Shown: positions 2,984 to 45,369 of the stretch, in pieces
How positions within the stretch are numbered: the stretch's first letter is position 1
Layout: every line of letters starts with the position of its first letter
DNA from: an uncultured Oscillospiraceae bacterium
GTDB taxonomy: Bacteria > Bacillota > Clostridia > Oscillospirales > Acutalibacteraceae
NCBI GenBank assembly: GCA_900549755.1
Contig: URPQ01000001.1
Location: forward strand, 13,947 to 77,946
DNA: 64,000 bases
Direction: 5' to 3'
The notes under the pieces: model-generated
What the model saw: only the letters and a program-made list of their open reading frames with translations
What the model was told of the DNA's origin: nothing
Database searches by the model: none
Position numbers and translations under genes: made by a program

Positions 2984-2989
2984 CCGATT

Positions 2990-20512: not shown

Positions 20513-22631
20513 TTTCGGCAAAAACACCTTGCATTGCCTTATATGATTTTTTAAGCCGTGTTTTAACGGTTATATTCCCGAGGGGACGAAACGCGGCGGA
20601 AAACATTTTTATTTCACCGCCGCTGCCCGAGCCGACGTAAATATCCGAAAACGGAATAAAGCCTATTTCCTCTTTATTAAGCTCGCCTATACATATGCCG
20701 AGCCTTGCGTTTGCAACGTTTAAAAGATACCAGGCAATGCGCACCTCCAGCTTTCCGTTTTTAAAATAAAAATCCGCCTGCGAGTCGTAATTGCCGCTCT
20801 CGGGGTTTGCGTTGCCGTATTTTAAAAGTCCGCTTTCGTAATACTGCGGCGGAATTGTCTTTTTATCGTCGGGTAAATACATCTCGTTTGAAACAAGGGT
20901 GTTTATTTTAACATATTCCCCGCTGTTTTTAACCGCCGCTTTACCCTCAACAACCTTTTTCAAAACCGAATATCTGTAATTGAACAGGTCGTAATACGCG
21001 TCGCACAAAAGGCGCGTATTTTCTTTTCCGTTTATTTTAAGCAGAAAATCGCAGCTTTTATCAAACGTAAGCCCGTTACTGCGGCTCATAGCGCTGCCCG
21101 TGCCCAAAACCGAAATCGGAACGTAATAAACTTTCTTTTCAAAATCAAAGCCCGCGGGCAGGTCTATATAAATGTGCATATACTCGGCGTCATACTGCAC
21201 TTTAAGGCTCGTGCCGTTTACGGTGCTTACATTATCCCATTCGGTAAAATCGCCGTCGGGGTAAGCAACCGAGGTTTCAAAGCTTAACATGCCGTAGCCC
21301 TGCTCGGCAGAGGAAAGGTTACGCGTTCTGTCGGTCGGGTTATCGGGGTAATACATAACCGTGTTCCAGGTGCGCTTGAACCATTCGTCCTGCCAGGAGA
21401 AAAGCAAGCCGCCGCAGTAGCCCTCAAGCGCTATGCTGCGGGTCATATCGGCGCAGTATTTTCCCTGCTCTTCCTCTGTCAGTCCGCCCTGATTATAGCC
21501 CATAACCGATTTATGCGCCACCCCGCGCGAGGTGGAAAGCCCGTATTCCGCAATAAGCACAGGCACGGTATACTGCGTTTTAAGCGCCTTTAAATACGCG
21601 CGGTAGGTGTTTTGCCGTCCGTTCTCATCGCGGTAGTCAAGGTATTCCTTTTGGTAGTTCATAAATTCGGGGTAATATGGGTAAACGTCAACCGCGGCGA
21701 AAAGCCCGGGAGCGTATTTTTCGGTTTTCAGTATATTTTCGGTATTGACCAATTGAGAATCCTCTTCCTCAAACGGCTCGTTAGAGTGGGTGAGCGTATC
21801 AAGCGTTTGCCAGTTTAAAAACGCAACGGGGGTCTGGTGCGAATAGCTTTCGGTTTCAAAGCTTATAAGGCTTTCCCCCACCTCGCACAAAAACGCCTCA
21901 AAGGGCGACGCGTTTTTCGCGGTGTAAAGGTATTTTCCCGAAAAGCTGTTTTGCTTAGGGTGCGAGGCATTTGTCTCCGCCACAAAATCGGCGGGGTATT
22001 CAAGCCCCAGTATATATCCCACCACATACTTTGAAATATCCTTATCGTATACCGCGGGGGAAATTTTGCCGTAAACGGTGTAATCGCTGTTGCCGTGAAC
22101 AATATCCACCGTTTCTTTAGCCGAGCGCTTAAAGGCGTTTATAATAATTTCGTCGCTTTCAAGCGCGTCGGTCAGCTCGTACATTAAATCCTCGGAAAAC
22201 CATATGCCCTGAATAAGATAGAGCGGCGACTCTGCATTACGGCTGTTAAAATCGTAAAGCGCCCTGTAAAAATCGGGGTTCATAACCGTAAACACCCGCA
22301 CGGTGTTCGCGTTCATCTGCTTTATTTTTTCAAACCAATCGGTATAGGTGGAGTAAGAAACATTCGGGTTATTAAGGTCGGTAAGGGCGCTTGTAAGCCC
22401 CATATTAACGCCCTTAATATAAAAAAGCTCCGGTTTCTCCCCCATATTGCTGTAAAAATAGCCGTTTTCATTTGTAAAAAAGGCAAAATCATTATCGCCC
22501 TGCGGTGGTTTTACGCTATCGGTCGGAAACGAAAATTCACTTTGGCTTTTTTTGTTTATTACCGGGCTTTTACAGCCCGATAATGAGAATATAAGCGTGA
22601 AAATAAGCAGCAGCGAGGTTATTTTTTTCAT
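20505..22631 (-). CDS. lipoprotein, clan GH-A (GH5-like TIM-barrel) glycoside-hydrolase-like protein, paralog A
   Basis: Lipobox LSGC. Putative acid/base SNEPF and nucleophile IAEYGLSTSRG motifs. C-terminal domain FYFKNGKLEVRIAWYLLNV shared with the two paralogs. Confidence 0.6.
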   Translation of the reverse strand: MKKITSLLLIFTLIFSLSGCKSPVINKKSQSEFSFPTDSVKPPQGDNDFAFFTNENGYFYSNMGEKPELFYIKGVNMGLTSALTDLNNPNVSYSTYTDWFEKIKQMNANTVRVFTVMNPDFYRALYDFNSRNAESPLYLIQGIWFSEDLMYELTDALESDEIIINAFKRSAKETVDIVHGNSDYTVYGKISPAVYDKDISKYVVGYILGLEYPADFVAETNASHPKQNSFSGKYLYTAKNASPFEAFLCEVGESLISFETESYSHQTPVAFLNWQTLDTLTHSNEPFEEEDSQLVNTENILKTEKYAPGLFAAVDVYPYYPEFMNYQKEYLDYRDENGRQNTYRAYLKALKTQYTVPVLIAEYGLSTSRGVAHKSVMGYNQGGLTEEEQGKYCADMTRSIALEGYCGGLLFSWQDEWFKRTWNTVMYYPDNPTDRTRNLSSAEQGYGMLSFETSVAYPDGDFTEWDNVSTVNGTSLKVQYDAEYMHIYIDLPAGFDFEKKVYYVPISVLGTGSAMSRSNGLTFDKSCDFLLKINGKENTRLLCDAYYDLFNYRYSVLKKVVEGKAAVKNSGEYVKINTLVSNEMYLPDDKKTIPPQYYESGLLKYGNANPESGNYDSQADFYFKNGKLEVRIAWYLLNVANARLGICIGELNKEEIGFIPFSDIYVGSGSGGEIKMFSAAFRPLGNITVKTRLKKSYKAMQGVFAEIS

Positions 22632-24838
22632 TTTTTCTCCGTGAATTTCTTAAAATAATTTTGCAGCTCGTAATATGCGGGTTTCAGCCTTTCGTGCCAT
22701 GTGGGGGTATTCCAGCCGTTATATTCATAGCTGCCGCCGAGAGTGATTTTAAGGCTTTCGGTGCCCGTGCGGTAAGCAAAGCCGAAATCAAAGCTTTGGT
22801 ACGCCTGCGGCGATATTACCTGCGTTTTACGAAAATCCGATATTTGCTGCTTGCCCGAGGGGTCCATTACATTGAGCAGCTGCCACGGTATTCTTATTTC
22901 AAGCTTGCCGTTTTTAAAGTAAAAATCCGAAAGCGATTTATATTCCTGCGCTTTGGGATTGCCGTTTCCGTAGCGCAGCTTTCCGGTTTCATAAGCCTTA
23001 TCGGGCACAACCTGATTTGTCCCCTTAACGGTCAAATTATAGCCGTAGCACAGCCGCATTATATCAAACATACCGCTGTTTTTAACTCCCGCGTTTTCCT
23101 CCGCCTTAATATCGCTTAATTTCTTTGACTCAAGGAAGTAGTAATTGAACGCATCATAATAACGGTCTACATAAATATGCGAATTATCCTTACCGTTTAT
23201 ATAAATCAGAAAATCGGCGGCGGTATCAAACTCGGCGTTGTACTGCGCGGCTTTTAGGTTGCCCTGGTCGGCAATGGTGTTTATCGGAATAAGCAGCGTA
23301 TCCTTTTCAAAATCATAGTTCCCCGCGTCCAGCATTATATACAGGTATCTTTCATCACTCTTTATATAAAGCTTGCCCTGCCCGGTGGTAACGGTGGGCT
23401 GTGTGTTTTTCCATTCGGATACGTCCCCGTCAACATATGCCGCCATACTCTCTTTACCTGGGTCAAACGCCAGCAACCCGAAGCACTGCTCGGTCGTTTG
23501 AATGTTCGACCAGTAAGGGCGGCGATCGGCTATATCAAACATAACGTTATTCCAGGTGCGCTTGAACCACTCATCCTGCCAGGTGAACACAATTCCGCCG
23601 GCATATTTCGCGTTTTCAATACTGCCGAGCATATCTATAAGCATAGCGCCCTGCGCGGTTTCGTCCACCATACCCTGGTTATAGCCCATAACGCTCTCGT
23701 GCCCCATACCGCGTGAGGTGGGAATACCGAACTCCGCCACGATTATAGGCACGGTGTGCGCCAGCTTTAAATCCTCTAAATACGCCTCGTAGGTGTTCAC
23801 CTTTCCGCTGTCGTCGGTGTATTCAAGGTAATCCTCTTGGTAATTCAGACTGTCGGGATAATAGGGATAAATATGGTAAGAAGCGAACATTCCCGGTCCG
23901 AAATTGCGGCACTTTACGTTTTCGGTGTTTACGGTAGCCTTATCCTCATCAAAGTGCGGCTCGTTCGGGTGGGTGAGCGGGTCGGTGGTTATCCAGTTGC
24001 TGAAAGCAAGCGGAACCTGAAATTTGTAGGTTTCCGCCTCGTGCTTTATAAGCGCGTCTCCCACGCGGCACAAAAACGCCTCGAAGGGCGAAGCGGTCTG
24101 CGTATACAAATACTCGCCGTCGTAATCCTTTTTATCGGGGTGCTGGTTGTTGGTATTTATAACAAAATTCGGGTCCCATTCAATGCCTATAATCCACCCT
24201 ACAAGCCATGGCGACACATCGGTGTTGTACGTTCCGTATGCCTCACCCGCGGTTTCGGCAATTTTTGCCTTGCCGTGAATTACGTTTACAAGGTTTACCG
24301 CGTCAGTCATGAAATCGTTCAGTATCTTTTCATTTTCGGCGTAGGTATCGGATAAACGCTCTATATCCTCCTCGTTTACCCATATGCCCTGGTAAAGATA
24401 CAGCTTGTTTTTCGCCTTTTTATTGAAGTCCCCAAGCGCCTGGTAAAACTGCGGCGGCATAAGGGTATAAATTCGTATGCAGTTGCAGTTCATTTCGCTT
24501 ATATAGCCGAACCAGCGGTAATAGGTATCGTAGGATATCGTCAGGTCTCCCGGGAAAAGCCCCGGCTCGGTTGCGCCTATATTAACGCCGCGCATGAACA
24601 TCTGTTTCCAGTCGCCGCTTTCGTAAATGTAGAAATAATCGCCTTCCGCTTTAAAGCGGAAGCTTATGCCGGTTTGATTATCGGTGTAGCTTTCGGCGCC
24701 GCCGGCAGACGAGTCCTTTTCTTTCTTTTTTGTGTAAAAGGAAATTCCGTGTATTCCGAATATTTCAAGAAGTCCGGTTTGAGCAAGGCAGACAAGCACC
24801 AAAAGCGTTGCCACGACCGAAATAACGACCTTTTTCAT
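22628..24838 (-). CDS. secreted clan GH-A-like glycoside-hydrolase-like protein, paralog B
   Basis: PNEPH and VAEFGIPTSRG motifs; aligns along its length with 20505..22631; shares the C-terminal FYFKNGKLEIRIPWQLLNV domain. Confidence 0.6.
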   Translation of the reverse strand: MKKVVISVVATLLVLVCLAQTGLLEIFGIHGISFYTKKKEKDSSAGGAESYTDNQTGISFRFKAEGDYFYIYESGDWKQMFMRGVNIGATEPGLFPGDLTISYDTYYRWFGYISEMNCNCIRIYTLMPPQFYQALGDFNKKAKNKLYLYQGIWVNEEDIERLSDTYAENEKILNDFMTDAVNLVNVIHGKAKIAETAGEAYGTYNTDVSPWLVGWIIGIEWDPNFVINTNNQHPDKKDYDGEYLYTQTASPFEAFLCRVGDALIKHEAETYKFQVPLAFSNWITTDPLTHPNEPHFDEDKATVNTENVKCRNFGPGMFASYHIYPYYPDSLNYQEDYLEYTDDSGKVNTYEAYLEDLKLAHTVPIIVAEFGIPTSRGMGHESVMGYNQGMVDETAQGAMLIDMLGSIENAKYAGGIVFTWQDEWFKRTWNNVMFDIADRRPYWSNIQTTEQCFGLLAFDPGKESMAAYVDGDVSEWKNTQPTVTTGQGKLYIKSDERYLYIMLDAGNYDFEKDTLLIPINTIADQGNLKAAQYNAEFDTAADFLIYINGKDNSHIYVDRYYDAFNYYFLESKKLSDIKAEENAGVKNSGMFDIMRLCYGYNLTVKGTNQVVPDKAYETGKLRYGNGNPKAQEYKSLSDFYFKNGKLEIRIPWQLLNVMDPSGKQQISDFRKTQVISPQAYQSFDFGFAYRTGTESLKITLGGSYEYNGWNTPTWHERLKPAYYELQNYFKKFTEKK

Positions 24839-26247
24839 TGCTCAACATCCTTTCTTTTAATTTTGCCCCAGGTTTTTCTGAGCTTTCGGTATTTTAAAAT
24901 GCCCTCCAGGCGGAAAAGGGTTATCATTTGCCGATAACCGAAGTTTTCAAGAACGGCGTAAAGCGATAATGACAGGCACTGTTTTGCGCTCATAACCGAT
25001 CTTCGTGTGTATTGCTCCAAAATAAGGCTGCCCATTGAAAGTATAACGCCGAGCAGCACGGCAAGCAGAAAATAAATTGTGAAGAAGAACATATTAAGCT
25101 CGCCCATTAAAAGCGAAAACGGAATTATGAAATAGCCGAGCGCCTCAACCACCGCTCCGAAAAGCTCAAACACCCAGTTATAGGGTATTGCCGCAAGCCC
25201 CACGCTGCCGTAGCGCGGGTTGAAGAAAAGCCCCTTGTGCGCAAGCAGCGTATCAAGCAAGCCTATCTGCCAGCGCCTGCGCTGACTGCGTATATCGTTT
25301 ACCGACATGGGTCCCTGCGTCCAGCACACCGCGTCCTCGCAGAATATTATTTTATATTTGCGCCTGTTTGCGCGCATATATTTGTGAAGGCGCACTACAA
25401 TTTCCATATCCTCGCCTATTGTGTTGGTCTTGTAACCGCCCACCTCAATTACCGCCTGTTTTTTAAAAACGCCGAACGCGCCCGACACTATAAGCATTGA
25501 GTTTGTGGCGCCCCAGCTTACCCTGCCCGAGAGGAAAGAACGGTAATATTCCACAATCTGAAAGCGCTCTATCATTTTCTGCGGCATTGAAAAGCCGCTT
25601 ACCCGCCCGTCACGTATTTTAAAGCCGTTTGCAATGCGCACAAGTCCGCCCGCCACAACCGTATCGGTATTTTTAAGAAACTCAACCGAAAGTCTTAAAA
25701 GCGCGTCCGGCTCAATGCGGGAATCCGCGTCAAGGCAGGCAAAAAGCGGGTAGGAGGATATATTTATCCCTGCGTTCAGCGCGTCGGATTTACCGCCGTT
25801 TTCCTTATCAACATAAATAAGGTTTGGGTACTCTATGTTATAGTATACCCCGCGGACTTCCTTTGTGGGTATTGAGGTTTTTACGGCGGATTCGATTTTA
25901 TAAAGCCCGAAGGTCTCCACAATTTTTTCGTGAGTTTTATCGGTCGAGCCGTCGTTCACAACCACAATTTCAAACTGCGGGTAATCTATTTTCATAAGCG
26001 ATTTTATGTTTGAAACAATATTTTCCTGCTCGTTATACGCCGGTATAAGCAAAGAAATGGGTAAAAGATTTTCGCTTGAAACATATCTTCCGTAGTCGTT
26101 TGACTGCCTTGCCTTATCGTTTTTGCGCACCCGCACAAACGAAATTATGAGCTGAATTATGTATATCAGGCTCAGAATAATGGTAAATGCCATGCAAAAC
26201 CAGTTAAAAAAGGATATAAAGTAGCGTACATAGGTTATGAAATTCAA
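24835..26247 (-). CDS. processive family-2 glycosyltransferase (PgaC/IcaA/cellulose-synthase-like polysaccharide synthase)
   Basis: GT-A motifs (VVNDGSTD, DAD, GED) plus QRRRW (QxxRW) processivity motif; N- and C-terminal TM helices. Confidence 0.8.
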   Translation of the reverse strand: MNFITYVRYFISFFNWFCMAFTIILSLIYIIQLIISFVRVRKNDKARQSNDYGRYVSSENLLPISLLIPAYNEQENIVSNIKSLMKIDYPQFEIVVVNDGSTDKTHEKIVETFGLYKIESAVKTSIPTKEVRGVYYNIEYPNLIYVDKENGGKSDALNAGINISSYPLFACLDADSRIEPDALLRLSVEFLKNTDTVVAGGLVRIANGFKIRDGRVSGFSMPQKMIERFQIVEYYRSFLSGRVSWGATNSMLIVSGAFGVFKKQAVIEVGGYKTNTIGEDMEIVVRLHKYMRANRRKYKIIFCEDAVCWTQGPMSVNDIRSQRRRWQIGLLDTLLAHKGLFFNPRYGSVGLAAIPYNWVFELFGAVVEALGYFIIPFSLLMGELNMFFFTIYFLLAVLLGVILSMGSLILEQYTRRSVMSAKQCLSLSLYAVLENFGYRQMITLFRLEGILKYRKLRKTWGKIKRKDVEQ

Positions 26248-26249
26248 AC

Positions 26250-27347
26250 TTAATCCTCCTTTAAATTAACCGAACGGTAAAGCGCGTATTTAACCGCGTC
26301 CGACGCATACTTATCGTACCCGCCGAGCACATCCTCAACTTCCGAAATATTTACGTTCATATCAATAAGCGAATACGCCGCCGCCTGGCGTACCCACCAT
26401 TCCTTATCCTTTGTGGCTTCCTTTACGCCCTGTATTGCCGCGGGGGTGCCCAGCTTCTGAAGCCCCTTAACGGCGGCGGAGCGCACTACCCACTCCCTGT
26501 CCTTTGCGGCGGTGAGCAGCGTGTGCTCATCTGCCGGGTCGGCAAGAAAACCGAGCGCCCGCACGCAGGCTATGCGCATATCGGTATTCCGCGAAGCGGT
26601 ACCCTCGGAATAAAGGCGGTGAAAGCGCTTAAAACCGTATGGTGCAATAGCCTTTATTATAACCGCTTTCATATACTCATCGCATTTTTCAATTACCGCG
26701 ACCGCCAGAGCCTCTCTGTCCGCGCTGAAATTTGCAAAAAGCTCGTATATAATGCGGAATGAGAACTTTTTATCATTTTGGATTTTTAAAATATATTCCG
26801 CCACGCCCTCTGTATATCCCAAACGTGCAAGCGCCATTGCGGCGTTGTAGGCAATGCTGCGGTTTTTACCCTTTGAAAGCTCGTAAATATCGTTTAAATA
26901 ATCATAAGCGTCTAAATCGGCAAGTCGGCGGCAGGCATAGCCCACCCTGTATTTATCGCCCGATTTTAAAATATCCGAAAAAAGCTTTACGGGGTCAAGC
27001 GCCGCATACACACCGTCAATAACCATATCCTTTCTGCCGATGGTTTCGCTGTCGCCGTATTCCTCCCAAAAAAGGAGCTGCGCGCTTATCATTTCAAAAA
27101 GCCTTGTATCGTTTCCCATAAGCTCCTTTAAAAGCTCGGTTTCATTTTTGCGGCTGTTTTCGGTAGGGCTGTAAATAATGCCCTCTACCATACTCTGAAT
27201 TTTCTGCGATGCCGCCGTGTATTTATTTTTGCTGTCCTCCTGCCGTTTAGCCAGAATTGCCAGCCACAAATACTCACCGCCTAAAACCAGCAGGCAGAAA
27301 ATAATGCTTAACACCGCAAACAGTTCATAATGCAAAGCCCTTAGCAC
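26250..27347 (-). CDS. HEAT (PBS-lyase-type) repeat membrane-anchored protein
   Basis: N-terminal TM helix; repeated DxxWxVRxxAxxxL units near the C-terminus. Confidence 0.6.
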   Translation of the reverse strand: MLRALHYELFAVLSIIFCLLVLGGEYLWLAILAKRQEDSKNKYTAASQKIQSMVEGIIYSPTENSRKNETELLKELMGNDTRLFEMISAQLLFWEEYGDSETIGRKDMVIDGVYAALDPVKLFSDILKSGDKYRVGYACRRLADLDAYDYLNDIYELSKGKNRSIAYNAAMALARLGYTEGVAEYILKIQNDKKFSFRIIYELFANFSADREALAVAVIEKCDEYMKAVIIKAIAPYGFKRFHRLYSEGTASRNTDMRIACVRALGFLADPADEHTLLTAAKDREWVVRSAAVKGLQKLGTPAAIQGVKEATKDKEWWVRQAAAYSLIDMNVNISEVEDVLGGYDKYASDAVKYALYRSVNLKED

Positions 27348-27353
27348 CTCCCT

Positions 27354-30353
27354 TTATTTTGATGCAAAATATTTCTTTATCTGCGCAAAGCTTTCCTTTT
27401 CGCGCATGGTGTAGTTCACCTTTTCCCAGGTTGCCCATTTAAAGGTTTTGTAAGCCGGGTCTTCCTTTTTCTCGGGGAACAGGTAAAGCTGGTCGCCCGT
27501 TTGCTTATCGGCTATAAGCACCGAAACAATAGCGCCGTTTGTGCTTACCGTCTTTGCCTGACCCGATAAAGCGCCCTCGTTATTTATAACAATTCGCTGT
27601 GACGGGTCTGTAACGTTAAGCCATGACCAGGGTATTCTTATATAAATTGTAGAGCCGGTCTGGTAAAACTGGTTATCGCCCGAGGTAAAGCCGCCGTATT
27701 TAAGGCGGGAAACAAGGTTATAATCCCCAGAGTAGCTTTCCTTTGTAGCATACGCGCCGCGGCTGCGGTCATATGATTTTATAACGTACAGCCCCGCTTC
27801 CTGCTTGCCGTCAAACCGTAAAACAAACTCCATACCCGAAAGGGAGGTTGGGGTGCAGTCCTTTGAATAGTAGTATTCGCCGTCATTCCGCTGGTAGGTA
27901 TCTATGCCTATAAAGAACTGCTCGGTTGAAAAATCAATCTCGGTCAGCAGCTGTGCGGATATATAGAAATATCCCGCTCCCGAGGATAGCGAAAGCATCT
28001 GAACGCGGTCGTCGTCCGATAGGTTTATTCCCGTCTCCTTGGGTGCTTCGGAGTCAAGCGCCACAAGCCCCGTGGTTTGCGCGGGGTCGGCTACATTCTG
28101 CCACAGGCTGTTGTTTTCAAGCGGCACCGTGAACGGGTAAAGCTCATCGGATACAGCTGACCAATCATCGTTAAGGTCTGCCGCCACCGCTGCCGCAGCG
28201 CCCGCCTTGTCCGCCGCCGAAAGCAGAGCCACAGTTTGCTGACCCTGTGTTTTTTCGGTAACGGCGGCTCTGTCGCCCTGACCGTTTGCAGAGTTTGCGC
28301 CCAGCCCCGAAATCAGCAGTCGGTTACCCGTCGCGCTGTTAAGGCTTTCAAATTCCTCTTCCTTAACATCTCCGTAAGAAACGGCAAAGAATGCGTAATT
28401 TTCGCGGCAGGCTTTGTCGCTTATTATATCGCCAAGCGAATACGCACCATCGCCCGCCGTTTCGCTGCCCTTTATAAGCGATTTATCGCAATAAACGCCT
28501 ATCGGCACGGTGCTGCCGTACTGCCCTGCTGCGCGCTCCTGCACCGTATCGTACATAAGCGCGGCAATTCCCGCGTTTCCGCCGGAGGCGGCATATTTGC
28601 CCGAATATGAAATATTTGCGGGCGCGTTTTCGGCGTTTAACGTAACCGCAAGCAGATAAGCTGATACATCAATAAAGTATGATGAGGTTTCTTCGCTGCC
28701 GCTCGGTTTAAATGTGCCCTTGCCGTGAAGAACGTCAACCGCCGACTGTAAGCGGGTTTTAATATTATCCTCGTTTTCATCCCCGTTTACGGCAATATTC
28801 TGTATTATATAAACCGTATCCGCTCCCGATTTTGTATTGTTGGAATAAACCGCGCGGTAAAACTCAGGCGGCAGAATATCCTTTGCGTAAATACAGTTCG
28901 CGCCCAGCTTCAGCGCCTTGTCAATTAAATTCTGATAAAAGGTATAATTCCGCGAAAAGCCCTTTTGCCCCGGCTCCGAGCCGTTAATGCTTACGGCGTT
29001 AATTCGCATATCCTCCCAATTATCCCCCGAAAGCAGCTGAAAACCGCTGTCGGTAATGCGGAAACGCTCCGCCTTGTTATTACCCGTTTCCGCTTTTGCC
29101 TTGGGCTCAATTTCTTTAAGAATTTTTTTCATTAAGGGGTTGTAAAAATTCCAGTAAAAATTGCTTATATCGCCCTGGCGGTCGTAGGATATCCACCGGT
29201 AAACGCTTTCGGCAAACAAAAAGCGATTGTAATTTTCGTGGCTTACATAATCGTTAAAATCGCCCGCGAAATAATAAACCGGCGCCTTTCCCTCTACCCT
29301 TTTGCACATTGCCGCCGAAAAAACGGGACTTTTTAAAACGCCCTTGAGCTTTTCCATACCCGTAGCGTTTACGTCAAATTCAAAGCTTGCAATAACATCC
29401 GTACCGCTGTTCGGCTCAACAATTTCAAACCAGTTGTAAAAGTTCACCTTATTGCAGCTGCCGAACTGCTTTTTAAAATCCTTGTTTATGCGCACGGTAA
29501 GCAGGTTTTTAGATTCAAAGTCGGTTTTCTGCTCAAGAATTATAATTCTGTCTGAGGAAACGAGCAGTATTCCGGGTCCCGAAAATTGCCACTCAACGCC
29601 CTCCTGCTTTTCATACATCGGCGGCGCCCAGTCGGGCACGTCGGTGAAATCCTGCAAATCGTAAATATATCGTCCCACCCAGCCCGTCGGTCTTATGCCG
29701 CAAAGCGAGGATAACTGCGAATAAACCGAGGAATCAAGCCCCGAATTAAAAAGTTCCATTTCCGCAACAACGGTTGCGCCGTTTTCGTAGGCATATGAAA
29801 TAACCGACATATCGTCTACGGTTATTCCGGCGCCCCTAGCCGTGGAATTATCGTAATAGCCGTAGGTATCGTCCACCGCGCCGTAAACGTCCGCAATATA
29901 CATAAGGTCGGGCGTGTAATCGAGGGTGGATAAATCACGTCGAGACTTTATTTTGCCTGTTTCATCAAGCAGCGGTCCGAAATAATCGGTTTTGTAATTA
30001 TAAAATTTTTTATTCTGAAAAACATACTTCTGCTGCTCCAAAAGCCAGAAAAAGCCCTGATGCTTGCGGTAGGCAGAGCGTATGTCAATATCGTTGCCGT
30101 CCTCTACGGTTAAAACCGTTTTATCAAGCAGGCAAACGTTAAGCAGGGTTTTAGGCTTTATCCGCCACCCTATAAACACAAAAGCAAACAGTGCCAGAAA
30201 CACAAGGGGTATAATAAAATACCACTTTGCTTTTTTCGGCTTTTTAACCTTTTCAACCTCAGCCTCAGTCTGCTTTTCGCGGTCTTTTTCCGGGTCAAAG
30301 CGTATTTCTCCGTCCTCGGCGGTAAATTCGTTTTCGTTCGGGTTTTCGTTCAT
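27354..30353 (-). CDS. large type-II membrane-anchored extracellular protein, divergent paralog C of the GH-A-like family (catalytic motifs not evident)
   Basis: Charged cytoplasmic N-terminus plus one TM. Central barrel region aligns with the paralogs (CIYAKDILPPEFYRAVY...VYIIQNIAV) but lacks NEP and EYG motifs. Shares the C-terminal IYIRIPWSWLNV domain. Confidence 0.55.
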   Translation of the reverse strand: MNENPNENEFTAEDGEIRFDPEKDREKQTEAEVEKVKKPKKAKWYFIIPLVFLALFAFVFIGWRIKPKTLLNVCLLDKTVLTVEDGNDIDIRSAYRKHQGFFWLLEQQKYVFQNKKFYNYKTDYFGPLLDETGKIKSRRDLSTLDYTPDLMYIADVYGAVDDTYGYYDNSTARGAGITVDDMSVISYAYENGATVVAEMELFNSGLDSSVYSQLSSLCGIRPTGWVGRYIYDLQDFTDVPDWAPPMYEKQEGVEWQFSGPGILLVSSDRIIILEQKTDFESKNLLTVRINKDFKKQFGSCNKVNFYNWFEIVEPNSGTDVIASFEFDVNATGMEKLKGVLKSPVFSAAMCKRVEGKAPVYYFAGDFNDYVSHENYNRFLFAESVYRWISYDRQGDISNFYWNFYNPLMKKILKEIEPKAKAETGNNKAERFRITDSGFQLLSGDNWEDMRINAVSINGSEPGQKGFSRNYTFYQNLIDKALKLGANCIYAKDILPPEFYRAVYSNNTKSGADTVYIIQNIAVNGDENEDNIKTRLQSAVDVLHGKGTFKPSGSEETSSYFIDVSAYLLAVTLNAENAPANISYSGKYAASGGNAGIAALMYDTVQERAAGQYGSTVPIGVYCDKSLIKGSETAGDGAYSLGDIISDKACRENYAFFAVSYGDVKEEEFESLNSATGNRLLISGLGANSANGQGDRAAVTEKTQGQQTVALLSAADKAGAAAAVAADLNDDWSAVSDELYPFTVPLENNSLWQNVADPAQTTGLVALDSEAPKETGINLSDDDRVQMLSLSSGAGYFYISAQLLTEIDFSTEQFFIGIDTYQRNDGEYYYSKDCTPTSLSGMEFVLRFDGKQEAGLYVIKSYDRSRGAYATKESYSGDYNLVSRLKYGGFTSGDNQFYQTGSTIYIRIPWSWLNVTDPSQRIVINNEGALSGQAKTVSTNGAIVSVLIADKQTGDQLYLFPEKKEDPAYKTFKWATWEKVNYTMREKESFAQIKKYFASK

Positions 30354-32581
30354 TTGTTTTTCTCCGCTACCTTTGCTTTTATTTCATCTATACACCCGTG
30401 CATTGCCTCAACCACCGCCGGGTCATACATTGTTCCGGAGTTTGAGTTTATATAATCCACAACATTATCAACCTGCCATGCGTCCTTATATGAGCGCTTG
30501 GTGGTAAGCGCATCTATTGTGTCGGCAACCGTTACTATGCGCGCGTATTCGTTTATATTTTCCCCCGCAATTCCGTTGTAGCCCTTGCCGTCCCACCGCT
30601 CGTGGTGCTCGGCGGCTATTTCGGCGGCGCAACGCATAAACTCACCGTCAAAAACAGATAACAGCCGCCTGCCGTATTCGGTGTGCTCCTTAATAGTTTC
30701 GCGTTCGCTTTCCGAAAGCAGACCCGTTTTGTTTGTAATTTCGGTAGGTATTGCCGTTTTGCCTATATCGTGCAGCATTGCCGCGGCAGCTACCGTATTG
30801 CATATTTCTTGGGGATAGCCCATTTTTCGCATAAGCAAATCGGTATAATACGCCACGCACTCAATGTGGTCGGGGTTGTTTCCGGCGGCTGTCTCGGTAT
30901 CGGCTGCAAGCTGTGTGAATGCTTCTATTTTCGTCTTTTCCGTATCCTCATACTGTGAAAAGCGCGATAAAGCAACCTCGGTGCAGGTGTAAACCGTATC
31001 CATAATGCTTGTGAAAAAGTGTGAAAGCCCGTTGCTTAAATTTTCAAAATGGAAAAAAACGGCGGGATTACCGTTTTCGGTAAATACAAAATCAAAATAA
31101 GCGTCGGCAAAAACGCAAAGCCTGCCGCTTTCGGCGCACCGTTTTTCTATTATTTCATAGTTTACACCGCCCGGCAGGGAATTATAAATCTGCCTGTAGC
31201 TGCCGTTTTCCTTTACCGAAACCTCAAAGGCAATATTTTGCGCGGCGTTTTCGGTAAATATTTCGCTGCAAAGCTTAATAACGCCGTCCGCCGCCGCTTT
31301 ACAGACAGAAAGCTTATCGCGGCGGGAAATTATATCTGCCATAATATCCGCCGTTTCCCCCACGCATTTATCATAAGTTTCGGTTTTAAGCCTTGCTGTA
31401 TCGGCACTGTCCCTTGCAAACGCCTTTGCCGATAAAATAAAGCTGATAAAGCCCAAAAACACCAGCTCGCCTATAATTCGGCAATAGGTAAAGTTGTTTC
31501 TGAACCTGAGCGAAAACTGCATAGCGCCGCAAAGTGCATCCAGCAGCGACAGGTAGGTAAGCATTATAAAAAAGCCCGCGGCAAACTGTATTCTGTGTTT
31601 TAAAGGGCGGGCGCACCCGTAAGCGCAAGCAGCCGTGCAAATTGCCGAAAGCAGCGCCGATAAAAGCATAACCGGCCTTGCAATAACTACATTCGGTATA
31701 AAAAACGTTGCAGCGGCGGCAGCTACACTGAGCGCGGAAAAAAGAAATATTTTTTTTCCCTTAATTTCAAGCGCGGATTTTGCCGTTAACGTGAAAATTA
31801 AAATAATAAATATCTCTGTGGCGACAGCTGTATTGTAAAGCTGCGGAAAATTTATAAAATAGGTTGCACCGGTTATCGCCTGCAAAGCCGCGGCTGTGCC
31901 GTAAAGTAAAATAAGCCCCGCCGTTTTAAAGCCCGGCGCCCTGTTTTTTTTGTAAAAAGGCAGGAAAGCTGCCAAAAACAGTGCCGCTATGCCGAGCACC
32001 ACCATTATTGCGGCAAAAACCAATGCGCCGTTTACTATAAATCCGGGATTTTCGGATTTCTCGGTAATTTCGGTTGTAATTTCGGCTGAAAATGGAAGGC
32101 ACAAAGACATTTCAACCTTGGTTTCGCCGTCAGTCGCCGGCAATACCACCGCGTTATAGCGGTTGCCCACATATTCGCTTTCGCCGTAGTGATTATTATA
32201 AACCGCCTCGCCGTTAATAGCTATTTGCATAGGCGCGTAGTCAGCCCTTATAATAAGCTTACGTTCTATTGCAGCGCCGTCAAGGCTGAAACGAATGTGC
32301 ATATATTTCCCGCTTTTTTCCCTTGACATGGGCGTAAACGCATTAGCCGCGCTCCACTCAGCCCTGTTATCGGTCGGTGGCTGCTTGCTGTTTGTGTAAA
32401 TATACTCCCACGCCGGCACCGATTTACCTGATATAACCGAAGCCTCCACATGATTAAAAACATAGGTTACTGCCACTGTTACAACAAGCAAAACCGCCGC
32501 AAACTCGGCTAAAAGCCAAAAGTTTGCCCCGCCTGCGGCTGTTTTTTTAATTTTTTGCAAAAAGTAGGTTACTTTACGCAT
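30350..32581 (-). CDS. 7TM-receptor with extracellular domain and C-terminal HD-GYP c-di-GMP phosphodiesterase domain
   Basis: HD motif MLHDIGK and HHERWDGKGYNG (HD-GYP signature); N-terminal TM, periplasmic domain, multi-TM block. Confidence 0.75.
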   Translation of the reverse strand: MRKVTYFLQKIKKTAAGGANFWLLAEFAAVLLVVTVAVTYVFNHVEASVISGKSVPAWEYIYTNSKQPPTDNRAEWSAANAFTPMSREKSGKYMHIRFSLDGAAIERKLIIRADYAPMQIAINGEAVYNNHYGESEYVGNRYNAVVLPATDGETKVEMSLCLPFSAEITTEITEKSENPGFIVNGALVFAAIMVVLGIAALFLAAFLPFYKKNRAPGFKTAGLILLYGTAAALQAITGATYFINFPQLYNTAVATEIFIILIFTLTAKSALEIKGKKIFLFSALSVAAAAATFFIPNVVIARPVMLLSALLSAICTAACAYGCARPLKHRIQFAAGFFIMLTYLSLLDALCGAMQFSLRFRNNFTYCRIIGELVFLGFISFILSAKAFARDSADTARLKTETYDKCVGETADIMADIISRRDKLSVCKAAADGVIKLCSEIFTENAAQNIAFEVSVKENGSYRQIYNSLPGGVNYEIIEKRCAESGRLCVFADAYFDFVFTENGNPAVFFHFENLSNGLSHFFTSIMDTVYTCTEVALSRFSQYEDTEKTKIEAFTQLAADTETAAGNNPDHIECVAYYTDLLMRKMGYPQEICNTVAAAAMLHDIGKTAIPTEITNKTGLLSESERETIKEHTEYGRRLLSVFDGEFMRCAAEIAAEHHERWDGKGYNGIAGENINEYARIVTVADTIDALTTKRSYKDAWQVDNVVDYINSNSGTMYDPAVVEAMHGCIDEIKAKVAEKNK

Positions 32582-32590
32582 TTTTCACCC

Positions 32591-32788
32591 CTACAAACGC
32601 GAATATTTTTCCAAAAGCTTTTTAACCTCAGGCGGGCTTTGCGCGGTGGCGGCGCTGCTGCCCGAAATATCGGGGCAGGCTTTTATAGCCTCGCCCAAAG
32701 CCTCATACGCCCGCGTCACCCGCTCAAGCGCCGCTCTCAGCTCTTTATTTTCCCTTTCAAGCTCTTCAAGCGTTTTTTCTCTGCTCAA
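32591..32788 (-). CDS. small coiled-coil protein (65 aa), hypothetical
   Basis: Heptad-like EELERENKELRAALERV; sits between the lipoprotein and HD-GYP genes; weak support. Confidence 0.3.
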   Translation of the reverse strand: MSREKTLEELERENKELRAALERVTRAYEALGEAIKACPDISGSSAATAQSPPEVKKLLEKYSRL

Positions 32789-32801
32789 TCCTTTACGCCC
32801 C

Positions 32802-33482
32802 TTATTTTGAAGAAGTCATTTTTTTAATAATCGCACGCCCCGAACTATCCTCAACCGTTAAAACGGTTTTGCCCGTTTTTTCGGTCTTAGCCGAATCGGA
32901 GTAAAACACCGTGGTAACCTTATAGGTATCGGTTCCGGCGCGTTTTATTTCGGTATCGTAGTAAATTTCGGTGCCGTAGTGCGGCTCCCACATTTCAAAC
33001 TGCTTTTTGCCACTGTTATAAAGGTCTGCCTTTGTAATATCCACCGAAACCGAGCCGAAATATTTTAAAATCTGCAATTTAATATCATCGGCAGAGGCGG
33101 TTCTCAGTCTGTTTCCGGAGCTCGGCATATCGGTAAGATTTTCATAGTAAATATGGCAAAAGGCAAACTGCACCAGCGCGTTCACCGAAATATCATCCGC
33201 CGACGAAAATTTTTCCTGCGCCAGCAAATACCGCAATTCATAGCTGCGGTGCGCAAGCGCGTCGGCGTTTATATATTCAGGAACAGGCTTATTGCTTGTT
33301 TCCCCGCCCTGCTCTTCCGAAGTAATTTCGGAAGAATTCTTTTTTATTCCGGGGTTTGTGTTGTTGCAACCCGCAAAAGTAAATATTATAAGCAGCGCCA
33401 AAAGGCACGCAAACCTTTTCATTATCATGTCTCCCAAATCTATAAAAAATCGCCGCCGCACAACCTTGCGCAGCAGCGACAA
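32802..33482 (-). CDS. lipoprotein, hypothetical
   Basis: Signal peptide with FAGC lipobox; 226 aa. Confidence 0.5.
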   Translation of the reverse strand: MSLLRKVVRRRFFIDLGDMIMKRFACLLALLIIFTFAGCNNTNPGIKKNSSEITSEEQGGETSNKPVPEYINADALAHRSYELRYLLAQEKFSSADDISVNALVQFAFCHIYYENLTDMPSSGNRLRTASADDIKLQILKYFGSVSVDITKADLYNSGKKQFEMWEPHYGTEIYYDTEIKRAGTDTYKVTTVFYSDSAKTEKTGKTVLTVEDSSGRAIIKKMTSSK

Positions 33483-33515
33483 AACCTTAAAATTTATAAC
33501 GGCTGACAGTACGGT

Positions 33516-34745
33516 TTAATAATTCCACATATAATCGGTATATGAAATTGTCAAATCATCGTTGTTCTCAATAAACACATCAGCCGAGCCGACATACTTA
33601 TGAGCAATGTATGCGTCGGACTTAATTGTTGAGCCTAACGGCAGATTTACCGAAAGACTTTCAAGCGGAGTGTTTACAACCTGCTTTATTCCGGTCTGCT
33701 TATTGTAGTCGGTCTTAAAGTGGTATCTGTAGGCCATAAAGCACTTGTTTACATCGGTTCTGAGCACCGGGTCACCCTTCGGCAAAACAAAGGTCTTGGT
33801 TTCGGGGTCAAAGCTTCTCTCATCATAGCGGTTGGATACCTTAACTGTGTAAACCACGGTACCGCAAATACCGTCGCCGTCATCCGAATATCTGTCATTA
33901 TCCCAGTTGTTAGAGCACATCTGAAATTTATATTCTTTTCCGATTTCAAGAATTATGCTTTCGCCGCCGTAGTAAACGGTGCCATCTTCAAAACGAACCG
34001 ACATTCTTTTCGGGCACACAATGCTGCCCTTAACCTCATTTTTTCCGGGTTCTCTGTCAGCGTCGGGCTTATCGGTTGCGGGCTGCTTTTTCCAGCATGC
34101 GTAAAGGGTTACGGTATTCATATTTGCCGAAAAAATAAGTTTGTCCGACGTTATAACGTCGCCCGCCTTGTATGCGGTGCCCGAACCGTCGGCAGCGGTG
34201 TTCCAACCTATAAAATCATAGCCCTCGCGGGTAAAGCCGTTTTCCTTTACGGTAGCCGAGTCGCCTTTATAATAATGAGTTCCGTCGGTTACGGCACCTG
34301 CCGCGTTATCGCAGTTAGCATCATAAAGCACGCTGCAGAAAGGAGTTACAACGCCGTCAACATGCCAGCCGTCGTCTTCCCACTTCACAACATACCAAAT
34401 GATTGACTGCCCGTCTTTAAGAGTTATACTCGGCGCGCTTACAATAATTTTTTCGATGCTTGCGCCGGTTTCATCATAAATTCCGTCCAAATTACTGTTG
34501 GTAATTGTTATTTTACCCCAGCCTGCTGCCATATAATTTTTTGACGGCTGCGACGCTGTTCCTACCGGAACCTCAAGACCTTCGTTAAGTAAATAGAACC
34601 TTGCGTCAACGGTTCTTGACCAATTGCTGCCGTGACCGGGATAGTAATCCCAATCCTCCCAGCTGTATGCCTCTGCCGATGCGGTTACGCCGAAAATGCC
34701 CAAAAGCATTGCAGCGGCAACTAATAAGGAAAATAACTTTTTCAT
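33516..34745 (-). CDS. secreted protein with Listeria-Bacteroides (InlB B-repeat/Flg_new) repeat domain
   Basis: Signal peptide MKKLFSLLVAAAMLLGIFGVTASA. REGYDFIGWNTAADGSGTAYKAGDVI...TLYACW repeat signature. Start moved to the ATG at 34745 because the track GTG start lies in the leader-terminator stem. Confidence 0.6.
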   Translation of the reverse strand: MKKLFSLLVAAAMLLGIFGVTASAEAYSWEDWDYYPGHGSNWSRTVDARFYLLNEGLEVPVGTASQPSKNYMAAGWGKITITNSNLDGIYDETGASIEKIIVSAPSITLKDGQSIIWYVVKWEDDGWHVDGVVTPFCSVLYDANCDNAAGAVTDGTHYYKGDSATVKENGFTREGYDFIGWNTAADGSGTAYKAGDVITSDKLIFSANMNTVTLYACWKKQPATDKPDADREPGKNEVKGSIVCPKRMSVRFEDGTVYYGGESIILEIGKEYKFQMCSNNWDNDRYSDDGDGICGTVVYTVKVSNRYDERSFDPETKTFVLPKGDPVLRTDVNKCFMAYRYHFKTDYNKQTGIKQVVNTPLESLSVNLPLGSTIKSDAYIAHKYVGSADVFIENNDDLTISYTDYMWNY

Positions 34746-34764
34746 AAACATCCGTCCTTTTAAG

Positions 34765-34821
34765 AGAAAATAAAAAAGCTGCACCTATAACGGAATTTAA
34801 AAATTCCATATAAGTGCAGCC
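34765..34821 (-). terminator. intrinsic terminator inside the 5' leader (riboswitch expression platform)
   Basis: Minus strand: GGCTGCAC-N30 (with internal ggaatttttaaattcc palindrome)-GTGCAGC then TTTTTTATTTT, just upstream of the RBS/ATG. Confidence 0.55.
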
Positions 34822-34896
34822 TGACAATCATAGCATAAAAGCCTTAGATTCATAGCTTTGCGTCACACGCTTTCGCGTGTTTTGCCTTTTAACTGT
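34822..34896 (-). promoter_or_regulatory. candidate c-di-GMP-I (GEMM) riboswitch aptamer
   Basis: Minus-strand RNA reads AAAAGGCAAAAC-ACGC-GAAA-GCGU-GU-GACGCAAAGC. This parallels the Vc2 element GGGCAAACC-AUUC-GAAA-GAGU-GG-GACGCAAAGCC element for element: GCAAA bulge, GNRA-capped 4-bp stem, GACGCAAAGC. It is followed by CUAAG/UAUG receptor-like elements and then the terminator. Confidence 0.55.
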
Positions 34897-34902
34897 AAGG
34901 TG

Positions 34903-34931
34903 ATTATATCACATCGTTTTGTAAATTGCAA
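34903..34931 (-). promoter_or_regulatory. sigma-A promoter TTGCAA-17-TATAAT driving the riboswitch leader/operon
   Basis: Minus strand: TTGCAA (34926-34931), 17-nt spacer, TATAAT (34903-34908). Confidence 0.6.
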
Positions 34932-35026
34932 GTGTTTTTTTAAATTTTTTTATTTAAAAAATCATTCTTGAAAAATAGGGTAAACGGGGGTATAATATTA
35001 ACAGTGAAATTTTAGGGGGCGATACC

Positions 35027-45022: not shown

Positions 45023-45369
45023 TGGTGGAGACGATGGGAATCGAACCCATGTCCAAAAATCAATCCATACCGGCATCTCCGAGCGCAGACGTTTATTTAC
45101 ATTCCCTTACGCAGACGTCAGACGTCAGACTTCCGCGCTTGGTAGCTCCAAAGCCGTGACAGGGGCAGGAGCGCGCCCCTGTTCACGTTCACCGCTAAAA
45201 TGACACCCTTGCCGGGTCGCGGTGTTCCCGGGTCGGATGAGCAGCCTAAATTAGGCTGCTAAAGCAACTTTATTGTTGTCAGTTAATTTTGTTTGCGGAT
45301 TTTATAGCGGTTCCGCACCGCTGCTCGCTTCCGATACTTCAAAATCCCTGTCGAAACCTTTACGCCCCC
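45023..45369 (-). ncRNA. ssrA: tmRNA (ssrA)
   Basis: 5' GGGGGCGUAAAGGUUUCGACAGGGAUU tRNA-like start and 3' end GGGUUCGAUUCCCAUCGUCUCCACCA. Internal tag frame GAC AAC AAU AAA GUU GCU UUA GCA GCC UAA gives (A)DNNKVALAA. Terminator hairpin downstream; -10 box directly upstream. Confidence 0.85.

Follow-up and report, generated by a model that had tools for sequence, protein, structure and literature searches.

The locus raises three questions: whether the leader RNA in front of a nine-gene cluster on the minus strand is a c-di-GMP riboswitch, in which direction such a switch would act, and how far into the cluster its control would reach. Below, the window denotes the whole 64 kb stretch of DNA that was analysed; its features are collected in Table 1. 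A first-pass annotation, made from the sequence letters, had proposed a c-di-GMP-I aptamer with a terminator platform on the basis of a minus-strand RNA (AAAAGGCAAAACACGCGAAAGCGUGUGACGCAAAGC...), and this RNA is present exactly as described there.

Table 1 Features of the riboswitch leader and of the downstream gene cluster in the window
Feature	Position	Strand	Description
sigma-70-type promoter	34903..34931	-	10/12 consensus matches, TG before -10; -35 TTGCAA 34931-34926, spacer 17 nt, TG 34911-34910, -10 TATAAT 34908-34903
c-di-GMP-I (GEMM-I, type 1) aptamer	34812..34896	-	RF01051 74.8 bits, pair mapping, covariation in 15 related leaders
aptamer P2 hairpin	34885-34860	-	GAAA tetraloop at 34874-34871
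aptamer P3 hairpin	34857-34818	-	tetraloop receptor UCUAAG 34848-34843 / UAUGA 34832-34828
Vc2 G20 equivalent	34886	-	G, model position 11 (Infernal alignment)
Vc2 A47 equivalent	34859	-	A, model position 38 (Infernal alignment)
Vc2 C92 equivalent	34816	-	C, model position 83 (Infernal alignment)
intrinsic terminator, expression platform	34767..34822	-	hairpin 34822-34776, U-tract UUUUUUAUUUU 34777-34767
RBS AAAGGA of gene 1	34760-34755	-	outside terminator hairpin
ATG start codon of gene 1	34745-34743	-	9 nt from RBS
gene 1 (P1)	33516..34745	-	409 aa, secreted; signal peptide, Listeria-Bacteroides repeat, conserved C-terminal all-beta domain
internal intrinsic terminator between genes 1 and 2	33444..33480	-	14-bp GC-rich hairpin 33480-33449, then UUUUU
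RBS GGGAG of gene 2	33435-33431	-	directly after internal terminator
gene 2 (P2)	32802..33422	-	lipoprotein, ~206 aa, lipobox FAGC
small ORF	32591..32788	-	65 aa, TTG start, RBS AAGGGG
gene P3	30350..32581	-	743 aa, polytopic membrane protein, C-terminal HD-GYP-type domain; Pfam HD_5 2.7e-31
gene P4	27354..30353	-	999 aa, membrane-anchored, without Pfam family
gene P5	26250..27347	-	365 aa, N-terminal TM segment, HEAT repeats
gene P6	24835..26247	-	470 aa, predicted membrane GT2 processive synthase (PgaC/IcaA-like), QRRRW motif
gene P7	22628-24838	-	736 aa, clan GH-A TIM-barrel fold
gene P8	20505-22631	-	708 aa, lipoprotein, clan GH-A TIM-barrel fold

The whole window was subjected to cmscan (64 kb, both strands, 4227 families), which matched RF01051 (c-di-GMP-I) at 34896..34812 (-) with 74.8 bits, more than twice the gathering score of 35, and an E-value of 7.6e-13 at that search scope; a local rescan returned E 3.6e-15. 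The alignment covers the model in full length (positions 1-87 of 87), and both hairpins fold, with 18/18 mapped aptamer pairs canonical or G-U. The match is far above chance and the leader is a genuine class I c-di-GMP riboswitch, a member of the known family. The first-pass candidate was thus confirmed, including its GAAA tetraloop and receptor elements, the latter (UCUAAG / UAUGA) of the 11-nt type; its 3' boundary at 34822 had to be moved to 34812, as it cut off the last 10 nt of the aptamer. The control search with RF01786 (c-di-GMP-II) was negative, with no match in the window at gathering score and none at E ≤ 10 within 34700-35000. Helix P1 is drawable with 3 bp at most (AGU/ACU). Read by eye in related leaders, it has 4 bp in L008 and 6 bp in L012b and is not obvious in several others, which makes it too short and variable for covariation to be counted.

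Ligand-contact roles have been described for G20, A47 and C92 in Vc2 numbering (PMC5888326, PMC6140456); these numbers were carried over to RF01051 model positions by a mapping that we inferred, and the window RNA has G, A and C, respectively, at the three equivalent positions. This bears on the question of whether the aptamer may instead recognise another cyclic dinucleotide (3'3'-cGAMP, GEMM-Ib-like) or some further ligand, given that GEMM-I variants with altered specificity are known (PMC6140456) and that the orthologous leader of L007/L011 has an A at the G20 position. An A at this position is the mark of cGAMP-type (GEMM-Ib) aptamers; the window RNA keeps the G, together with the A47 and C92 equivalents, and its best match within the clan is RF01051 itself. 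Aptamers with the wild-type G20 strongly disfavour cGAMP, with 10 μM vs picomolar for Vc2 (PMC6140456). A ligand other than c-di-GMP is therefore considered highly improbable, and c-di-GMP is the expected ligand.

Orthologous riboswitches were located by Rfam scans, as a strict regular expression for the aptamer core misses most of them. RF01051 precedes the orthologous cluster in 9/9 lineages with enough upstream flank, among which the identity of the P4 protein ranges from 99% down to 37%, and P1-family genes located elsewhere have an RF01051 riboswitch of their own. An alignment of 15 related leaders has pairing in 96.5% of the aptamer cells, and in 15 of 21 pairs both sides have changed in a compensatory manner. 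Covariation of the aptamer helices is strong: its score is 0.729, vs 0.29 for shuffled and ≤0.12 for slid partners, none of 500 shuffles reached the observed values, and slid partners were paired at 25-39% only. The aptamer is thus conserved, with compensatory changes, across lineages whose flanking proteins are just 37-73% identical, which shows purifying selection and makes a relic, decayed or without function, an extremely improbable reading of the match. Nothing specific to this locus favours a relic, the general point being that some predicted C. difficile class I riboswitches showed no function (PMC6200980); here, the score is high, contact nucleotides, tetraloop and receptor are intact, and promoter and terminator stand in register.

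The annotated promoter TTGCAA-17-TATAAT was found at 34931..34903 (-), with an additional TG that makes it a near-consensus extended -10 promoter, strong and constitutive-looking, from which transcription would start at about 34896. The layout TTGCAA-17-TGnTAT(A/C)NT recurs in the orthologous leaders L008 and L007. An intrinsic terminator exists just before the RBS, as annotated; contrary to that annotation, it does not follow the aptamer but overlaps its 3' end. The hairpin (~20 bp, dG -26.4 kcal/mol) uses as its 5' arm (GGCUGCACU...) the last aptamer P3 nucleotides, the C92 equivalent and the presumptive P1 3' strand, its 5' base sitting 4 nt within the P3 3' strand. Since the terminator 5' arm is made from the aptamer 3' end, aptamer and terminator are mutually exclusive. 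The overlap was present in 15/15 related leaders (L014b read by eye), in all of which the terminator 5' arm begins -11 to +5 nt from the last P3 pair, and where P1-like genes stand separately, the Shine-Dalgarno sequence AGGAG in their leaders doubles as the terminator 3' arm. A GTG-started ORF of 422 aa (34784) was rejected as the true start of gene 1, because the GTG lies within the terminator hairpin whereas the ATG at 34745 has a proper RBS.

Polarity cannot be deduced from the class, because class I riboswitches in C. difficile are almost uniformly OFF (PMC6200980); it was read from the architecture. The layout is of ON type: the terminator 5' arm overlaps the aptamer 3' strand that the ligand stabilises, and no separate antiterminator is present. 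In simulated transcription, an aptamer-like fold had the lowest energy up to the point at which the terminator 3' arm emerged. For the full leader, the terminator fold had -45.6 kcal/mol, vs -24.8 kcal/mol with aptamer and P1 helix enforced, and under this constraint only a truncated hairpin was left, set apart from the U-tract. As nearest-neighbour energies favour the terminator by ~20 kcal/mol, an ON model needs kinetic control together with energy from ligand and tertiary contacts, which lies outside the folding program's model. Termination would be the default state, and c-di-GMP should yield read-through.

On these grounds, the leader 34896..34767 (-) is judged, with good confidence, to be a class I c-di-GMP riboswitch acting as a transcription-elongation ON switch by the following mechanism. 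Transcripts would start near 34896 and the aptamer would fold first, the P2 GAAA tetraloop docking on the P3 receptor. Without ligand, the emerging 3' arm of the ~20-bp hairpin would capture GGCUGCACU... at the aptamer 3' end, RNA polymerase would terminate at the U-tract, and a leader RNA of ~125-130 nt would be released. Bound c-di-GMP would contact G 34886, A 34859 and C 34816 and lock the lower P3 stem, the C92 equivalent and the short P1 helix, so that the terminator base could not form; the leftover hairpin would then lie ~8 nt from the U-tract, and the polymerase would continue into gene 1. The eight other cluster genes would be expressed from those transcripts that read through the internal terminator (33480..33449) as well, and the HD-GYP protein encoded by gene P3, induced by its own substrate, would provide negative feedback.

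The same aptamer could in principle be an OFF switch in which c-di-GMP binding promotes termination, as the behaviour of the C. difficile class I riboswitches (PMC6200980) and the thermodynamic dominance of the terminator in the full leader would suggest. Such a switch requires an additional antiterminator element for the bound aptamer to disrupt, but only two competing elements are present here; with the terminator 5' arm being the aptamer 3' strand, a stabilised aptamer only weakens the terminator. This overlap is kept in every one of the 15 leaders, in P1-type gene leaders the same arm sequesters the SD sequence too, and a module for exopolysaccharide and secreted proteins that is repressed by c-di-GMP would be biologically odd. 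An OFF switch is hence regarded as improbable, and the ON switch is retained in what follows.

The downstream cluster comprises nine genes at 34745..20505 (-), spanning 14.2 kb. The product of gene P1 ends in an all-beta domain of ~190 aa that matches no known family; residues 230-409 are modelled with pLDDT above 90 (AF2 model), and comparison of this domain with PDB folds gave no significant match (best E 0.025, generic beta-sandwich or CBM-like folds). Gene P2 lies directly upstream of the remaining cluster in all loci. The 65-aa ORF, with a coiled-coil N-terminus and the C-terminal motif VKKLLEKYSRL, was found between genes P2 and P3 in every lineage by tblastn and gap translations. Gene P3 encodes a putative c-di-GMP phosphodiesterase: it shows similarity to a NosR-family c-di-GMP PDE (NCBIfam), and in 10 orthologues H572, H604, D605, H633, H659, H660, E661 and D687 are invariant, as are the HD, HHE and DG.GY motifs and the distal D; the Pro of GYP varies, the window having GYN. 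The small ninth gene, the embedded putative HD-GYP phosphodiesterase and the ON polarity read from the architecture are observations beyond the first-pass annotation.

Gene P6 has Pfam matches to Glycos_transf_2, Glyco_trans_2_3 and Chitin_synth_2 and carries LDADS, GEDME and QRRRW, the D, DxD, (T)ED and QxxRW set of processive synthases; its match to PgaC_IcaA (1.3e-38) is below the NCBIfam cut-off, as is that to CelA. Genes P7 and P8 are paralogues (42% identical) with invariant candidate catalytic residues E220 and E369. The P7 model was built with P8 and the distant P4 family, as the P7 homologues among the matches listed were all at least 99% identical; it has a mean pLDDT of 59.8, so that the barrel (residues 60-420) alone is reliable. 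The C-terminal 580 aa of gene P4 are a divergent paralogue of P7/P8, and since the nucleophile Glu is absent, P4 is probably a pseudo-hydrolase. PDB sequence searches, run with P4, P7 and a profile of P7/P8, returned nothing, and Pfam gave only weak hints to GH113. A PilZ or I-site receptor domain is typical of c-di-GMP-activated synthases; among the eight large cluster proteins, Pfam and NCBIfam found neither a PilZ nor a GGDEF domain, and an HD-GYP-type domain in P3 only. No GGDEF genes were found in the 64-kb window either, and such genes flank the cluster in L012, L014 and L029. Taken together, the downstream genes look like a synthase-dependent surface/exopolysaccharide machine, and the annotated surface/EPS functions held up in the GT2 with QRRRW, the secreted GH-A-fold proteins and the signal-peptide protein with its Listeria-Bacteroides repeat.

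The description of the cluster as a 14-kb operon was correct in its extent and not in its continuity, since the strong intrinsic terminator between genes 1 and 2 (33480..33449) means that the cluster is no simple uninterrupted operon. For the same reason, the riboswitch would act on the eight distal genes indirectly, in dependence on the fraction of read-through. Equivalent hairpins lie between genes P1 and P2 in L008, L007, L016, L012 and L024, and this conserved terminator could be taken to mean that the riboswitch controls gene 1 alone, with the polysaccharide genes transcribed as a unit of their own. Further in favour of such a division, the P2-P8 core in L014, L029 and L038 has its own riboswitch, apart from that of the P1-like gene. 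However, only ~10-25 nt separate the internal terminator from the gene-2 RBS, and no promoter was found between that terminator and gene 2 in a search that cannot exclude a weak one; the short gap and the lack of a promoter-like site there imply that core transcription has to originate upstream. Moreover, a core that is separated from gene P1 retains a c-di-GMP-I riboswitch, which makes control by c-di-GMP the conserved condition of the core. Control of gene 1 alone is thus held to be unlikely. Most likely, the riboswitch switches on the secreted protein and, by read-through, the polysaccharide-synthesis cluster when c-di-GMP rises.

Class I c-di-GMP riboswitches are well characterised, and the RNA itself therefore adds little. 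Its value lies in the genes that it marks, a well-known element standing before poorly known genes, for which matches to Pfam families are limited to GT2, HEAT and HD domains. The host is an abundant uncultured Ruminococcaceae of the human gut, in which the riboswitch points to c-di-GMP-induced matrix or surface functions for a family of secreted proteins and a conserved cluster. To our knowledge, c-di-GMP biology is essentially unstudied in this group of gut anaerobes, and the locus offers a testable handle on their biofilm or aggregate formation. More broadly, and with somewhat less than an even chance that all of the following parts hold jointly, the riboswitch may be the entry to a c-di-GMP module, as yet undescribed, in Oscillospirales of the gut (Ruminococcaceae/Acutalibacteraceae-like). 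This module would consist of a nine-gene synthase-dependent exopolysaccharide system, with one of three GH-A-fold paralogues catalytically dead and with HD-GYP feedback, and of a secreted protein family sharing the novel 190-aa beta domain; it would be switched on solely via class I riboswitches, placed singly, in series or divergently, and retuned by a G20A change in one lineage.

Among known systems, the downstream genes resemble those of the PgaC/IcaA PNAG synthases and of Bcs/Ccs with the GH5 CcsZ in the membrane-embedded processive GT2 with its QxxRW motif, in the secreted partners of clan GH-A hydrolase fold and, presumptively here, in control by c-di-GMP. They differ in that PilZ, PgaD, BcsB and a deacetylase are absent, that the partners P2, sORF, P4, P5, P7 and P8 have no Pfam family (except for HEAT repeats in P5), that c-di-GMP would act at the RNA level, and that an HD-GYP domain lies inside the cluster. 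The aptamer shares with Vc2 of Vibrio cholerae, and with RF01051 in general, the two hairpins, the GAAA tetraloop on an 11-nt-type receptor, the GGCAAA...GACGCAAAGC core and the G20, A47 and C92 equivalents. Unlike Vc2, it belongs to a Gram-positive gut Ruminococcaceae, has a very short P1 helix (3 bp) and a distal P3 helix of just 2 bp with a 6-nt loop, and is fused at its 3' end to a transcription terminator as expression platform.

The closest parallel in arrangement is the Bc2 RNA of Bacillus thuringiensis BMB171, which lies upstream of the collagen adhesion protein gene cap, is experimentally ON, and consists of a class I aptamer and an intrinsic terminator adjoining the ORF, with a terminated product of ~121 nt (PMC4933901). 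The terminator in the window likewise stands right before the ORF of a secreted/surface protein, with a predicted terminated RNA of ~125-130 nt, and by analogy the architecture predicts the same ON logic. The two RNAs differ in the genes that they regulate; here, an eight-gene cluster of polysaccharide type comes behind a second terminator, which is unconditional. The ON logic, experimental for Bc2, is read from sequence in the present case. Clostridial c-di-GMP riboswitches stand ahead of surface-protein, adhesin, pilus and flagellar genes, with a regulon formed by several copies in a genome, and in Clostridioides difficile all but one of the class I riboswitches (Cdi-1-x) are OFF, with ON control of adhesins exerted via class II (Cdi-2-x) (PMC6200980). 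The class I aptamer described here is likewise used once or twice per locus, but appears to do the ON job itself, without a class II match. The locus would thereby represent a clean natural case of class I ON logic, in which aptamer and terminator share nucleotides, in contrast to the class I OFF switches of C. difficile.

On the minus strand of 34931..34740, the RNA sequence given in the first-pass annotation was found exactly as quoted. The whole 64-kb window was scanned with cmscan against Rfam 15, yielding three matches above the gathering score, among them RF01051 at 34896..34812 (-), with 74.8 bits against a gathering score of 35, an E-value of 7.6e-13 and complete coverage of the model (positions 1-87 of 87). 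The proposed identity as a c-di-GMP-I (GEMM) riboswitch was borne out by this check, and the aptamer at this place is genuine, far beyond chance. The control for c-di-GMP-II was negative: in a permissive local scan of 34700-35000, this class was absent and no other notable match was found.

The Infernal alignment was mapped onto the sequence, using crystal-structure nomenclature for the helices (RNA stems P1-P3, distinct from the genes of the same names). With a GAAA-capped P2 helix and a tetraloop receptor in the P3 helix, the aptamer is assigned to type 1 GEMM-I. All in silico membership tests of RF01051 with a clear outcome placed the window RNA in the family; for the P1 helix, a pairing of 3 bp (ACU/AGU) can be drawn. 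In the Vc2 aptamer of Vibrio cholerae, three nucleotides contact the ligand: G20, by a Hoogsteen pair with G-alpha; A47; and C92, by Watson-Crick pairing with G-beta (PMC5888326, PMC6140456). At the equivalent model positions 11, 38 and 83, the window RNA carries G34886, A34859 and C34816, respectively. GEMM-Ib RNAs, selective for cGAMP, carry A at the G20 position (PMC6140456); since the window RNA has G there, c-di-GMP is the expected ligand. In the leader of L007, a related metagenomic locus (5315-5400; P4 identity 73%), as well as in L011 and L028, A instead of G was observed at the G20 equivalent (model position 11), and at model position 34 the L007 leader has G in place of A. GEMM-I RNAs acquire cGAMP binding or bispecificity through a G20A change (PMC6140456).

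The promoter TTGCAA-17-TATAAT named in the first-pass annotation was located by a consensus scan, with an additional TG extension, and transcription of the leader would start as read off its position. The terminator described as following the aptamer is present just upstream of the RBS of the first gene, but its hairpin overlaps the aptamer 3' end. The 5' arm (GGCUGCACUUAUA...) starts 4 nt inside the 3' strand of the P3 helix and takes in the C92 equivalent, together with the sole nucleotides able to form a P1 helix (ACU with AGU at 34894-34892). Growing transcripts were folded stepwise to minimum-energy structures, with energies as computed by the tools. An aptamer-like fold was the minimum until the terminator 3' arm was transcribed; in the complete leader, the terminator was favoured (-45.6 vs -24.8 kcal/mol with aptamer and P1 helix enforced). 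Under enforcement, a shortened hairpin alone remained, approximately 8 nt from the U-tract, which should not terminate. The leader has no third, antiterminator segment. Since aptamer and terminator share strands and no antiterminator is present, the leader is rather likely to be an ON switch, terminating by default and reading through upon ligand binding, with the polarity predicted from the architecture. Very slow ligand release is a trait of class I aptamers, for which kinetic control is expected, and ON switching would be under kinetic control here.

Features of the riboswitch leader, the downstream gene cluster and related leaders (window positions unless a locus is named)
Feature	Position	Strand	Basis
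Promoter TTGCAA-17-TATAAT, TG extension	34931..34903	-	consensus scan
P2 helix (first hairpin), inner stem 6 bp	34885-34860	-	Infernal alignment mapping
GAAA tetraloop on P2 helix	34874-34871	-	Infernal alignment mapping
P3 helix (second hairpin)	34857-34818	-	Infernal alignment mapping
11-nt-type tetraloop receptor in P3 helix	UCUAAG 34848-34843 paired with UAUGA 34832-34828	-	Infernal alignment mapping
Terminator hairpin, ~20 bp, -26.4 kcal/mol	34822..34776	-	folding
U-tract UUUUUUAUUUU after hairpin	34777..34767	-	sequence
RBS AAAGGA of gene P1	34760-34755	-	sequence
ATG start of gene P1	34745	-	sequence
P1, secreted protein, Listeria-Bacteroides repeat	33516-34745	-	domain searches
P1-P2 strong intrinsic terminator, 14-bp GC-rich hairpin (33480..33449) and U-run	33444-33480	-	folding/sequence
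P2, lipoprotein	32802-33422	-	sequence
sORF, 65 aa, coiled-coil N-terminus, C-terminal VKKLLEKYSRL, unannotated-looking	32591-32788	-	sequence
P3, polytopic membrane protein, HD-GYP-type domain	30350-32581	-	domain searches
P4, 999 aa, no Pfam family	27354-30353	-	domain searches
P5, TM segment and HEAT repeats	26250-27347	-	domain searches
P6, GT2 synthase, QRRRW, PgaC/IcaA-like but under family cut-offs	24835-26247	-	domain searches
P7, paralogue of P8	22628-24838	-	sequence comparison
P8, paralogue of P7	20505-22631	-	sequence comparison
Leaders with SD-sequestering terminator	L029 21059-21210; L038 14753-14905; L045, L047, L049, L050 (~2850-3005)		

The closest genome was UMGS974, an uncultured Ruminococcaceae MAG from human gut (P3 protein 96% identical), and the window species occurs very frequently in gut metagenomes. 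With a P4 profile, 43 metagenomic loci were recovered. RF01051 precedes the cluster in every lineage with enough upstream sequence (9 lineages, 62-77 bits), their P4 proteins being 37-99% identical to that of the window. In an alignment of 15 related leaders, Rfam pairs were formed in 96.5% of cells, with both-sided changes in 15 of 21 aptamer pairs; none of 500 shuffles reached the observed values, and pairing fell to 25-39% when partners were slid. Hairpin and U-tract follow the aptamer in all 15 leaders, the 5' arm starting -11 to +5 nt of the last P3-helix pair, and the terminator 3' arm covaries with the aptamer tail (window, GGCUGCAC/GUGCAGC; L014, GACCGCAAGA/UCUUGCGGUC; L029, GGCUGCAGC/GUUGCAGC). 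This overlap and covariation argue that the predicted ON architecture is conserved and no accident of the window sequence.

The gene order P2-sORF-P3-P4-P5-P6-P7-P8 is kept in all related loci. In the window, the sORF fills a 220-nt "gap" separating P2 from P3, and its position is conserved in every related locus. P7 and P8 share 42% identity, and the C-terminal 580 aa of P4 are a P7/P8 paralogue at 22% identity, probably a pseudo-enzyme domain because Gly replaces the putative nucleophile Glu. The P4 family comprises approximately 220 homologues from Ruminococcus and Clostridia MAGs. The AlphaFold model of P7, confident for the barrel (residues 60-420) only, matched clan GH-A TIM-barrel glycosidases at E 1e-8 to 1e-6 (GH157, GH2, GH5 mannanases, GH72, and CcsZ from the C. 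difficile cellulose locus); weak Pfam GH113 matches were obtained for 7/16 family members. In P3, the HD-GYP metal ligands are invariant in 10/10 orthologues, but the GYP motif lacks a conserved Pro. Domain searches of the cluster proteins returned no protein-level c-di-GMP receptor domain. The earlier reading of the downstream genes as a surface/EPS (exopolysaccharide) locus is supported by gene content (GT2 synthase, GH-A-fold paralogues, secreted protein). Apart from the GT2, HEAT and HD domains, the cluster is made of proteins without families, and no description of it was found in the searchable literature.

The P1-P2 terminator directly precedes the P2 RBS, with no promoter-like site found between them, and equivalent hairpins are present in L008, L007, L016, L012 and L024. 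Its presence implies that part of the transcripts end here, with a stoichiometry step within the "operon". The riboswitch is predicted to gate gene P1 directly; the P2-P8 core would be gated solely via read-through of the internal terminator, which would also keep P1 high relative to the products of the core genes. A conserved short motif, ACUGUCAGC, was observed right after the P1 stop in the window (33485-33512, -), L008 and L007, and can pair with a downstream GCUGAC in L007 and L008.

In L014, a second c-di-GMP-I riboswitch takes the place of the P1-P2 terminator, the two lying in series (5265-5351 before P1, 6578-6663 before P2). Its close relative L016 has an unconditional P1-P2 terminator (~6680-6725) with a 3' arm, UCUUGCGGUCUUUU, nearly that of the L014 second-riboswitch terminator (6650-6690), which points to the loss or gain of an aptamer at this junction. 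L012 carries divergent riboswitches before two P1 paralogues (4792-4875, +; 4529-4443, -), while L029 (6634, 21059) and L038 (150, 14753) have separate ones for the P2-P8 core and a locus-end P1-like gene. RF01051 was also found directly upstream of P1-family genes from unrelated contigs (4/5 checked). Judging by these separate copies, the P1 family and the core would be two modules of one c-di-GMP regulon. Stand-alone P1-like genes have leaders in which the Shine-Dalgarno sequence (AGGAG) itself forms the terminator 3' arm, with U7 and then immediately AUG after it, so that one hairpin would block transcription and translation, giving dual ON control.

GGDEF-motif ORFs (373-578 aa) adjoin the cluster in three relatives (L012 ~21098, L014 ~2185, L029 ~6274), and an extra HD-GYP-like gene (808-813 aa) lies just upstream of the riboswitch in L014 and L016; none of these was found in the 64-kb window. 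Divergent from the riboswitch is a DUF4364 gene (35027-35578, +) with its own near-consensus promoter TTGAAA-17-TATAAT (34968-34996), which shares an A/T-rich 65-bp spacer, in back-to-back arrangement, with the promoter of the riboswitch. The window further holds a tmRNA gene (RF00023, 158.8 bits; 45023-45369, -) and a tRNA gene (62.7 bits; 14472-14545, +).

Among known riboswitches, Bc2 of Bacillus thuringiensis, whose class I aptamer is followed by a terminator adjoining a secreted-adhesin ORF, was shown to be ON (PMC4933901); the window riboswitch would follow the same working logic, with ON being predicted here. The class I riboswitches of C. difficile are nearly all OFF (PMC6200980), opposite to the polarity predicted for the window. 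As class I thus includes both, the predicted polarity rests on architecture, not on class.
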